IMG/VR virus record: IMGVR_UViG_2548876700_000013
DNA length: 5,404 bases
Strand: one strand, 5' to 3'
Origin: a virus
Lineage: Duplodnaviria; Heunggongvirae; Uroviricota; Caudoviricetes
Position 1 is the stretch's first letter; each line of letters begins with the position of its first letter. Positions 1 to 3,000 of this stretch are shown one piece after another. A program made the position numbers.

Positions 1-3000
1 TTTCCATCTGGTACATACCCCGTCTCCCGTTATCCGGAAGCTGACAACAATAAAAAGCCACCAGTTAATTCCTGATGGCCCTGATGCATAAACGTCATAA
101 TACCTGACTGTTATGATTGACAATAATGATAATGTTTATATAGAAAGGTTCCCGATGTGTGTTACATATCATTTCTCCACGGGGAATATCCCCACGCCAG
201 CGCAGACTCTTTTACCCGTTCTCTTCTGCGCTGGCTCTTTTTTATTATGCTGCTGCATTTACCTCTGGCACCATGCTTTCTATCTCAACACAATACGTGG
301 TACTTCTTGTAACCAATATCATAACGATTAATCGACATAGAATTTCTCCCGTGTACAGGAACAGAGTTAAAAAGCCGGAACCGGAATCAAATCACAGGAT
401 GACCATCTGCCAGTGGCAGGTCATAAAAAAAAGGCCGCGCCATGCGCAGCCAGAACTCACAAGGAAAATGATAGAAGGAAATAACATTAGTGATGTACGC
501 ATGGCGCCTCCCGCTAAGTTCTGCAATGATCAAACAGAACTCGCTACGTGCCCTTAAAACTCGATCATTTAGCCCCTCCAAGGAGGATTCACCATGCGGT
601 TGATTTTTTAATAAACAGTAAACAAAAAAGTCAAGAATTATTCATTCTGTTCTTTCATCATCGGCCACAGCAATACCACAATGCCGCAGACCAGAGCGCC
701 ATCAGTCAGTACCAACATTATCCTGCTGGTGAAATCCATCATCACCATCACTAAAAGCAGGATCACAACAGCAAGCAGACACAGTTTATAAAACAATGTT
801 CAGGAAACGCATTCAGCATGCCTAAGGTTCTATTCCTACGAATAGCCAACTTGCAACTTAAAATATTATTTATGCAGCCAATTAAATTCTGGTCCTTACA
901 ATATCAACCTGAAGATTCTTATCTTGTGCTGATTGATAAATGACAAACCTTTTACTACCTGCATTGAAAGAAGTAGACAAAACCAGACAATTATCATAAC
1001 GAGCAAGAACATAATACCAACCATCATTATAATTAATCATTTCATATTCTTTCTTAAACTGTGGTTTGTAATATCCTGTCAGAAATGAAAAAAGCCAGAA
1101 ATATGCCACAAAAGCAATCATCACAATCTCAAAAAAATGTTTTTTTATAAATGGCTTATCATAGAAGCATGATACCGATAAAAATCGCCCATAAGATCTT
1201 ATCGAAATTGTAACCGCCAGCGCAATCGCTGCTGACAGTAGCAAAAGAGGTACCTGAATCTTCTGTCTCAATATAGAAAACTCAATAATTGCCGGCACAA
1301 ACAATAATTCCACAGCAAAATAAAGGCGAAATACATTTAGCTCTTGCATAGAATGTTTTCTTTTCACTGCGAAAAAGAATACAACACCAATACCCCAACC
1401 GATAAGAAATATAGCAATGACGATAACTGCAAAAAATAAACTTCTGGCAACATCATCAACACCTGCACCTACAATCCACCATGGGAAGCCGTAGTAAAAA
1501 GAAGTACCCCATCCATAGAAATAAGCACTCCCCCATCCAAGGCATCCCATGTAGGCAATAAAAAGTGAAGAACTCCTGAGCAGCGCACCATCCTTCATAA
1601 CCACCCCAATACAAGATGATAACATTGGCTTACAACTCATAACAAAAGCAATTCAATGCCGTCAAGAGGTTACAGGCTAAAAAAACTCTATTACATAGCA
1701 GCCAGCATGTTTACCGTACAAGTACAACTCAGGGCATAAAAAAAAACCCACTCGGCAGCGGGTTTATACATTTTTTACAACATACCAAATTTGCATGAAG
1801 TATATGGCTTTTAATCCAGTTTTGCAATATTTTGCTGTAAAAATGCTGCCTTTTGTTTTGAACGTGTTCTCGTCACAAGCAATAAAGCATCACTATCAAG
1901 CTGTAGAAAAATGTGCTTCATTGCAACCCAGCGTTCAGTAAATGTCTCGGACCAGTTTTTTGTTGTCACTCCCACCAATGATGCCAGTGTCTGGTATTCA
2001 TAGGCCTCACGCCCTGCAAGTTCGCTCTTCACATCCTGTGCAGCCAGCCAGATTAACGTCTTCAGGCGATCCAGTGTCTTACCTGCAATTTTTCTGTTAC
2101 TTAACAAATCTTTAAACTCGCTCCATGCCCATTGCGTTATGGTGACCTGATGCCCCCATCGAACGCTTTCGCTGTAACACCAAAGCAACCATGCTTTCTG
2201 ATGTTCATCGAGAGACAAAACCGCGCGGCGCCATGAAGAGGTTGAGAATTCAACCGGGCTGACCAAAGCAATGGATGAACCTTTTGCGTACGACTGCTTA
2301 CCGGAAGTCGGCGTATTATCCAGCGTAATCATCTTGCCAGTTACCACATCCAGAATGCGCGGCTTCTTTCGTTTGTATGTACCAGTATCAAATTGTGCAT
2401 GCTCCTGCCAGGCTTCGAGCTGGCCTTTCGTTGCTCCGTTCAAGTCAGCAGTAGCTGCCATAAGTTGCTCACGAACATACTGTAAATATTGGGTATTCAT
2501 GCAGTAAATCCTTTCTATATTTTGGCATAATTCTTCAACATTCGGTAATCGTTCAAAACCGAATCGGGGAAACGACATAAGCACAGGAGCCCCCAGCGAC
2601 AGCGAAGGAGTTCTGATATATAAGACTCAGACATCATTCATTCCCCGGTTCTCCAATATCTGTTTCACTCATCATCCATAACTACCTGTAATTGCCCCCC
2701 CTTTTTTTGTAACAGTTCTTATATTGCTATATAGAATAGCCATTACTAATGCATTTAAATTTAATAAAATAAAAATTATAAAAAACATAAAACACCACGC
2801 AAACACACTTAATAAAAACACCGTTACATTAAAAGATAATAAAAACCGCAATAAAAAACGAATAAATCAATTGTCTCACGCAATTATAAAACATCATATT
2901 GATTACGCACCTTGTATTACAAACTCATGTATGTAAAATACGCGCACCATTCAAAAAAAAGGAAGACAATAACATATGAAAAAAAGTGTCATCGCTGGCG

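Follow-up and report, generated by a model that had tools for sequence, protein, structure and literature searches.

A DUF3927/TciB-family gene separated from its usual partner tciA, beside the small RNA PasD1 in a lambdoid prophage

Our subject is a 52-codon open reading frame (ORF) on the minus strand, at positions 638..796, of IMG/VR virus record IMGVR_UViG_2548876700_000013. The whole stretch analysed, 5,404 nucleotides (nt) from the nin/late region of a lambdoid prophage, is referred to here as the window. An initial annotation, made from the sequence by eye, had described the ORF as a candidate small hydrophobic peptide, reminiscent of type I toxins and small phage membrane peptides. We find that the ORF is real and already known. 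It is a member of the DUF3927/TciB family and not a new toxin. The reading that we favour, with a probability of roughly 0.55, is that it is an orphan copy of tciB, left behind when the usual upstream gene, tciA, was replaced by a gene for a TfpB-like membrane protein, and that it is weakly expressed at best. The terminator downstream of the ORF belongs to a separate gene, encoding the small RNA (sRNA) PasD1.

The family assignment rests on profile matches and on distant homologues. The ORF product, MFYKLCLLAVVILLLVMVMMDFTSRIMLVLTDGALVCGIVVLLWPMMKEQNE, matches Pfam PF13064 (DUF3927; cut-off 25 bits) with a score of 53 bits (E = 3.4e-14), and residues 7-50 align to profile positions 7-49 of 53. 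It also matches PHROG 1470 'TciB-like' (phrog_1470; E = 2.5e-17). In NCBIfam there was only a sub-threshold match, to 'podovir_small' (16 bits, cut-off 32). RefSeq annotates the identical ORF as WP_000499454.1, 'DUF3927 family protein', and the phage 434 record names it TciB. The exact protein is found under the DUF3927 name on at least 995 contigs. It is identical in enterohaemorrhagic (EHEC) and enteropathogenic (EPEC) Escherichia coli, is 98% identical in phage 434, and occurs behind two different Q families. Relatives annotated as tciB were identified, by tblastn of phage genomes, in P1, P7, SJ46, N4-like podophages (Pollock, FSL SP-058/076) and Klebsiella phages. Note that our first scan of phage contigs returned only near-identical copies, and that the scan of genome contigs gave only four loci. 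The family is small, with only 24 clusters (50% identity) at E <= 0.001 among 1.84 billion representative proteins. Since the window holds 76 ORFs of at least 25 amino acids, the length of the tciB ORF alone is not beyond chance; it is the Pfam match and the distant homologues that make it significant. Literature searches on TciB, DUF3927 and TfpB turned up no study of what the small protein does.

The reading frame and its TAA stop codon (640..638) are as initially described, with 36 residues from the ATG at 748 and 52 from the upstream TTG at 796. The preference for the shorter form did not hold. The 52-residue product can be aligned over its whole length with TciB of P1 (ATG start), Pollock gp28 (ATG) and LMessi (GTG), and is hence the form that conforms to the family. 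Ten columns of this alignment are invariant (M1, K4, V18, D21, F22, T23, L30, W44, P45 and K48), and TTG796 coincides with the family start position. The frame cannot extend further, because an in-frame TGA (802..800) lies one codon (ACA) above the TTG. Forms of 36 and 37 residues, which some depositors have also annotated, would lose the conserved first hydrophobic segment.

A single transmembrane helix had been predicted for the ORF. The 52-residue form has two hydrophobic stretches, at residues 5-20 and 26-44. For the first, Kyte-Doolittle means over 15 residues reach 3.5, and the segment aligns with the N-terminal segment of the P1, Pollock and LMessi proteins. The stretches are separated by a conserved polar motif: in alignment A1, of lambdoid, P1 and N4-like phages, D21, F22 and T23 are invariant and S24 is nearly so. 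TciB would thus be a very hydrophobic protein of the inner membrane, with two segments around DFTS(R/K) and a WP..K C-terminus. The hydropathy profile and the placing of K4 and K48 would suit a hairpin that crosses the membrane twice and has its two ends in the cytoplasm. Alternatively, given that the P7 homologue carries a sig_peptide annotation, a signal-anchor, cleaved or uncleaved, followed by a single pass is possible. The ORF is itself a mosaic, with two alleles for each hydrophobic segment. Two of its C-terminal tails, MMKEQNE and VIKRNSLHNA, are related by an indel of 2 nt within a run of A. Such A-run indels are visible in the region encoding the tail (641..664, minus strand; alignment A2, columns 285-312) as AAAGAAC versus AAAAAGAAAC, and a third tail, VIKKKQPA…, also occurs. 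In the long-tail alleles, the stop codon overlaps a TTGATT hexamer upstream of the sRNA.

To place the window copy in context, we compared the genes around tciB. In all loci examined outside E. coli lambdoid prophages, six of six (P1, Pollock, LMessi, Pantoea L087, Franconibacter L088, and L089), tciB is directly behind tciA, which encodes a TerB-domain protein. In each, the start of tciB overlaps or abuts the tciA stop codon. This points to translational coupling and suggests a 1:1 partnership. Hence, in its usual arrangement, tciB would be a second cistron, probably translationally coupled to tciA, and TciB may act as a membrane partner or anchor of TciA. In Pollock (L004:2555-2907, plus strand), a few hundred bases downstream of tciA-tciB, there is a match to a group I intron (101 bits). 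Two E. coli prophages resembling Stx phages (L090 and L094) have broken tciA fragments after Q, then an intact tciB, the GTG start of which overlaps the stop codon of the last tciA fragment. Genes for tRNA follow Q in L090, and none were found in L094.

In the window, tciA is absent. The gene upstream of tciB encodes the TfpB-like protein, which has no TerB match in either Pfam or PHROG. The window copy thus stands outside the tciA-tciB module, which is intact in L003-L005 and L087-L089; here, tciB has a TTG start and follows an 85-nt spacer. DNA alignments place the junction at about codons 1-3 of tciB, and homology with tciA-linked alleles begins at AAACTG (K4-L5). The spacer is likely to be a recombination junction at the tciB 5' end. 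tciB resides in a cargo slot, between Q/pR'-tR' and the lysis genes, and in our reading recombination at its 5' end swapped tciA for the unrelated TfpB-like gene.

The TfpB-like protein matches phrog_1521 (E = 2.1e-154) and its homologues carry the precomputed Pfam assignment PF27470 'TfpB'. An AlphaFold2 model was of low confidence, with a mean predicted local distance difference test (pLDDT) score of 60.6, too low to support a comparison of folds. Homologues unaccompanied by a DUF3927 gene were found in three settings: near the heat-labile enterotoxin genes eltAB (one on a 112-kb complete record), near a Sif/GDSL-lipase (sseJ-like) gene in a Salmonella-type locus, and near lpxR in Citrobacter rodentium-type loci. 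We conclude that the TfpB-like protein is independent cargo, with no obligate tciB partner, and this weakens the case for it as a functional partner of TciB. The gene recurs beside virulence cargo (loci L104-L110). Note also that in the C. rodentium-type loci the TfpB-like gene lies immediately next to lpxR and diverges from it; in the window, ylcG-Q comes between the two.

We then asked what selection has acted on the two genes. Across the family, the tciB frame is conserved. Against P1, Pollock and LMessi, protein identity is 40-45% and pN/pS (the ratio of non-synonymous to synonymous differences per site) is 0.38-0.50, which is the lowest or joint-lowest value of the six frames; pS, at 0.68-0.99, is saturated. 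Among copies that start with TTG, we used 184 loci, representing 72 haplotypes. None of these has a stop codon or frameshift in codons 1-48. By comparison, roughly 14 of the 72 haplotypes have indels or stop codons in the TfpB-like gene. At an equal rate per nucleotide, about three disruptions would be expected in tciB, and the difference from zero is borderline. In terms of substitutions, the TfpB-like gene is under strong purifying selection, with 31 synonymous and 8 non-synonymous differences from E. albertii (pN/pS 0.07), and 7 and 0, respectively, from four E. coli loci. The polymorphism count for this gene was contaminated by local indels and was not used. For tciB, synonymous substitution, proposed initially as a check, supports conservation at the family level. 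Purifying selection within the TTG-type clade could not be demonstrated; in such close relatives there are too few differences for pairwise dN/dS to decide.

Next, we turn to the terminator at 425..451, which had been taken as the end of a transcript carrying tciB. Positions 597..425 of the minus strand are 100% identical to PasD1 of EPEC strain E2348/69 (1060260..1060432), an Hfq-dependent sRNA validated by Northern blot (Table S6, Pearl Mizrahi et al. 2021, PMC8550237) and also by RIL-seq (in which interacting RNAs are ligated and sequenced). The published Northern probe corresponds to window positions 441..464. Because of this identity, and the position of the probe, the hairpin can be assigned to PasD1. 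The sRNA starts 41 nt past the tciB stop codon, on the same strand, and does not overlap tciB. Rfam STnc100 (RF02076) gives a full-length match at 627..422 of the minus strand with 37.7 bits (E = 1e-6). This is under the gathering cut-off of 47; hence, automated annotation would miss PasD1. A second copy in E2348/69, PasD2 (741157..741328), is directly behind the 159-nt coding sequence E2348C_0687 (PMC8550237), the product of which is WP_000499454.1 in RefSeq. A sigma-70 type element at 608..634, read from the DNA sequence, could be the PasD1 promoter; its spacing is non-canonical and it was not flagged by our promoter scan. Binding of RpoD has been reported at STnc100 promoters in Salmonella LT2 (PMC10794520).

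An STnc100-family RNA was found behind tciB in all lambdoid loci examined, four scoring 96-145 bits and five, of the PasD type, 37-41 bits, under the Rfam cut-off of 47. The distance from tciB ranges from a few nt to about 65 nt. There is no such RNA behind tciB in P1, Pollock, LMessi, L087 or L088. An sRNA of the same family is also found 75 nt past stx2B in Stx2 phages (PMC12370729). Furthermore, PasD has been related to STnc100, with Q and LpxR as conserved neighbours (Zhu, Shabalina, Storz; bioRxiv 10.64898/2026.05.13.724894). Hence, the sRNA is a feature of the cargo slot and is not tied to tciB in particular.

Published RNA-seq data for EPEC E2348/69, which has the identical gene pair, allow transcription of the region to be gauged. 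Values are DESeq2 baseMean in the activating condition. Note that reads from identical prophage copies may be mis-assigned, and that RNA, not translation, is measured. The values were 69 for Q, 226 for the TfpB-like gene (717 nt), 36.7 for tciB (159 nt), 11,017 for pasD2, 102 for the esterase gene and 3.5 for the holin gene. Divided by length, the TfpB-like gene has about 0.32 normalised reads per nt and tciB a similar 0.23, both 10-20 times above the lysis genes. PasD2 is at about 280 times the level of the two. These numbers fit low-level co-transcription of tciB and the TfpB-like gene in the lysogen. They also fit a separate origin for the sRNA, or much greater stability than the transcript of the two protein genes. 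Hence, co-transcription of the ORF with the membrane-protein gene, as suggested initially, is plausible; the terminator, however, is that of the far more abundant sRNA and not the end of their operon. In our view, lysogens probably contain low levels of a transcript shared by tciB and the TfpB-like gene; after induction, tciB would be on the Q-antiterminated late transcript. Translation would be weak at best. A Ribo-seq table for strain EDL933 gives a ribosome-coverage value of 2.16 for 'STnc100_1'; this value, not placed on the ORF, was not counted as a sign that tciB is translated. PasD1, which the downstream terminator serves, would be expressed separately and abundantly.

Several observations weigh against tciB being a functional, if weakly expressed, orphan. 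The frame is intact and its TTG aligns with the family start; translation signals, however, were not seen at any candidate start, and neither coupling nor the canonical partner is retained. As initially noted, no Shine-Dalgarno sequence is recognisable: judged by duplex energy with the anti-Shine-Dalgarno sequence, there was none at the seven possible starts within codons 1-20. Energies were >= -0.2 kcal/mol at TTG796, GTG766, GTG751, ATG748, GTG745 and ATG742, and -3.9 kcal/mol at ATG739. Comparison genes in the window (Q, the phosphatase gene and lpxR) gave -5.4 to -8.5 kcal/mol; candidate starts of the TfpB-like gene are also weak (-1.5 and -2.2 kcal/mol). Polymorphism among TTG-type copies is neutral-like, with 4 synonymous and 7 non-synonymous changes over 35/121 sites. 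Similarly, compared with locus L101, there is 1 synonymous difference and there are 6 non-synonymous ones, including L5P and S24R at conserved positions. In E. albertii, substitutions and repeat insertions have destroyed the second hydrophobic segment (…SGLEAGGWRLECGIVTLRWP…), and some copies there hold two or three GGWRLEA units in tandem. AlphaFold2, run with a shallow alignment, returned one continuous helix (pLDDT 81) and no hairpin, which settles nothing. Finally, tciA, tciB and tciC of P1 are non-essential by CRISPR interference. The E. albertii copies (P0048, P0066 and P0071; L099:1100-1273) have one to three tandem 7-residue units (GGWRLEA or CGIVGLWD) in the second hydrophobic segment, which points to a 21-nt tandem repeat expanding in a decaying gene.

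Taken together, such effects could mean that tciB is an untranslated relic, the 3' remnant of a tciA-tciB module after recombination of the TfpB-like cassette. The frame would then be open only because the event was recent, the ORF is short, and the PasD1 promoter is beside it. We regard this as a tentative but serious possibility. It would account for the TTG with a TGA one codon above and no Shine-Dalgarno sequence, for a junction falling at the very first codons, for the neutral-like changes, for tails altered by A-run indels, and for decay in E. albertii beside a conserved TfpB-like gene. It does not readily explain why codons 1-48 are undisrupted, borderline as that comparison is, why the TTG falls exactly at the family start, or why tciB is intact where tciA is broken in L090 and L094. 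Nor would a relic be expected to specify an identical protein in EHEC and EPEC, 98% identical in phage 434, across Q types. Hence, neutral-like polymorphism and the E. albertii decay, set against the intact frame and wide identity, leave a weakly expressed orphan and a recent relic in balance. Our preference, as stated, is for the orphan.

Other explanations are less probable. That tciB and PasD1 form one functional unit, by 3'-UTR-type (untranslated region) or dual-function biogenesis, or that TciB acts alone as a small membrane protein, in EHEC and EPEC lysogens, without TerB, strikes us as unlikely. In the first case, passage of RNA polymerase, and perhaps of ribosomes, through tciB would supply the Hfq-dependent sRNA or govern its output. 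If true, the STnc100-family RNA behind every lambdoid tciB, and the intact tciB where tciA decays, would mean that the linkage is selected and not an accident of the slot. Somewhat more doubtful still is that TciB serves as an accessory (moron) membrane protein in its own right, acting in the lysogen with or next to the TfpB-like protein, for instance in envelope modification or superinfection exclusion. This idea draws on the order of the two genes and their 85-87 nt spacing, which hold in both E. coli and E. albertii and behind two types of Q, on the similar read densities in the EPEC lysogen, and on the association of the TfpB-like gene with virulence islands. However, the TfpB-like gene was found in three other contexts that lack tciB, selective constraint on the two genes is very different, and PADLOC gave no defence-system match for tciB, the TfpB-like protein or the plus-strand ORF. 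Note that this explanation overlaps with that of the weakly expressed orphan, and differs only in a TerB-independent function. A holin was also considered and rejected: there was no holin match in Pfam, and the P1 and Pollock relatives are outside lysis cassettes.

The resemblance to a type I toxin, whose translation would be gated by an antisense or neighbouring sRNA, now carries very little weight with us. Of the initial description, the small phage membrane peptide stands, as a DUF3927/PHROG 1470 protein of a prophage late region, and the toxin likeness does not. The peptide is indeed small and hydrophobic, with weak translation signals, and the gene for an abundant sRNA adjoins it. However, Pfam gave no match to toxin families (Hok, Ldr, TisB, Ibs, Sho, Zor or DinQ-type), DUF3927 being the only match above threshold. 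Rfam gave no antitoxin RNA (Sok, Rdl, Sib, IstR, OhsC or SymR-type) at E <= 1, although a novel antisense RNA would escape such scans. The promoter scan of the plus strand, where a search for an antisense sRNA promoter had been proposed, found no promoter-like site facing tciB. PasD1 shares its strand with the ORF and has no overlap with it. Moreover, family members are second cistrons behind tciA, in lytic and temperate phages alike. It is scarcely credible, lastly, that the plus-strand ORF at 548..754 is the real gene and the minus-strand frame its shadow. That ORF does exist on the same DNA, as the initial annotation cautioned, and is open in the window, L090 and L094. However, it has no family match, is codon-aligned with tciB, and would run antisense across the PasD1 5' end. 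The equivalent frame has four stop codons in P1 and four in Pollock, and is open only where TTA, CTA and TCA are rare. We conclude that the plus-strand ORF is the shadow of the minus-strand gene.

The stretch 350..1000 of the window matches E. coli O157:H7 chromosomes with 100% identity and phage 434 with 98.8%; it is present in 697 of the 5,426 complete genomes of E. coli. Genes and sites of the minus strand come in the order ninG, a Ser/Thr phosphatase gene, ylcG, Q, a pR'-like promoter, a tR'-like terminator, the TfpB-like gene, tciB, the PasD1 terminator and a class II holin gene. A terminator is annotated at the position equivalent to tR' in phage 434. The sites at 1744..1827 delimit a slot whose cargo is the TfpB-like gene, tciB and PasD1. 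Their layout resembles pR'-tR' and would yield a short leader RNA, like lambda 6S or a StxS-type transcript. All features are collected in Table 1.

Table 1. Positions of tciB, its parts and neighbouring features in the window
Feature	Position	Strand	Remarks
Class II holin gene	start codon near position 16	-	downstream of tciB
RefSeq 'hypothetical protein' WP_012578864.1	159..557	+	132 amino acids; antisense across most of PasD1
PasD1 sRNA (STnc100/PasD family, Hfq-dependent)	425..597	-	173 nt; 100% identical to E2348/69 PasD1
Intrinsic terminator, PasD1 3' end	425..451	-	stem 451..433, U-run 432..425
Antisense ORF	548..754	+	codon-aligned with tciB; incidental; no Pfam or PHROG match
Candidate sigma-70 promoter for PasD1	608..634	-	TTGACT (634..629), 15 nt, TATTAA (613..608); read from sequence
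tciB / DUF3927-family ORF	638..796	-	52 amino acids; TTG start at 796, TAA stop 640..638
Hydrophobic segment 2, residues 26-44	665..721	-	followed by conserved W44-P45...K48
Conserved polar motif D21-F-T-S-R25	722..736	-	separates the two hydrophobic segments
Hydrophobic segment 1, residues 5-20	737..784	-	predicted transmembrane segment 1, or possibly signal-anchor/signal peptide
Spacer between TfpB-like gene and tciB	797..881	-	85 nt; without Shine-Dalgarno; in-frame TGA 800..802
TfpB-like polytopic membrane-protein gene	882..1625	-	247 amino acids from RefSeq start; 252 from ATG 1640
tR'-like strong terminator	1765..1744	-	about 35 nt past the promoter-like site, just downstream of Q
Late-promoter-like site (pR'-like)	1827..1799	-	TTGCAA, 17 nt, TATACT; overlaps Q 3' end
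lpxR, lipid A 3'-O-deacylase gene	2976..3935	+	inserted between nin genes and Q

Some features of the slot are worth recording in their own right. In locus L100, the anti-sRNA AgvB (2998-3059, minus strand; 96.5 bits) is directly behind the STnc100 copy that follows tciB. Hence, several regulatory RNAs are packed in the slot. At 156..245 on the plus strand of the window there is a weak match to Esr41 (32 bits, gathering cut-off 102), together with a terminator-like hairpin. EPEC RIL-seq chimeras of 'E2348C_1013' (1060613..1060654, minus strand) map to window positions 203..244 on the plus strand, and this feature is Hfq-dependent (baseMean 2,064, log2 fold change -2.9). The 156..245 region may hold a gene for a further sRNA that binds Hfq and is convergent with PasD1. 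The RefSeq protein WP_012578864.1, called in the same region, is frameshifted in the PP2 copy of E2348/69 and has no family match above threshold. The call is doubtful and probably spurious.

As a gene call, tciB adds nothing, since the ORF was already annotated and named. Our analysis instead corrects how the region is read. It is the 52-residue form that conforms to the family, and not the 36- and 37-residue forms given by depositors. The terminator, and most of the RNA signal of the region, are those of PasD1, a virulence-associated sRNA of EPEC and EHEC. Should TciB prove to anchor proteins with a TerB domain in the membrane, there would be a first way into a phage accessory pair that is widespread.

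The closest known system is TciB of P1 (P1_gp075). Like the window copy, it belongs to DUF3927/PHROG 1470, and the proteins share a length of 51-54 residues, two hydrophobic segments and a phage-borne accessory gene. The P1 and N4-like members differ in having an ATG or GTG start at the tciA stop codon, whereas the window copy has a TTG, 85 nt behind the TfpB-like gene. Note that the label 'tellurite/colicin resistance/cell division' attached to TciB has no experimental basis. It derives only from the similarity of the neighbouring TciA to TerB, and that neighbour is absent in the window. Type I toxins (Hok, Ldr, TisB, Ibs, ShoB, ZorO and DinQ) are also small, hydrophobic and membrane-targeted, with poor ribosome-binding signals. 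Unlike them, tciB has no toxin-family match, no antisense RNA was found for it, and it is not regulated as a stand-alone gene. Class II holins and pinholins, such as S21 and the window holin, similarly have two hydrophobic segments and are encoded between Q and the endolysin gene. However, a true class II holin gene already follows downstream of the window copy, and the P1 and N4-like members of the TciB family are in early/middle regions. PasD1 and PasD2, grouped here with the STnc100 sRNAs (RF02076), represent an adjacent RNA gene, separate from the tciB ORF.

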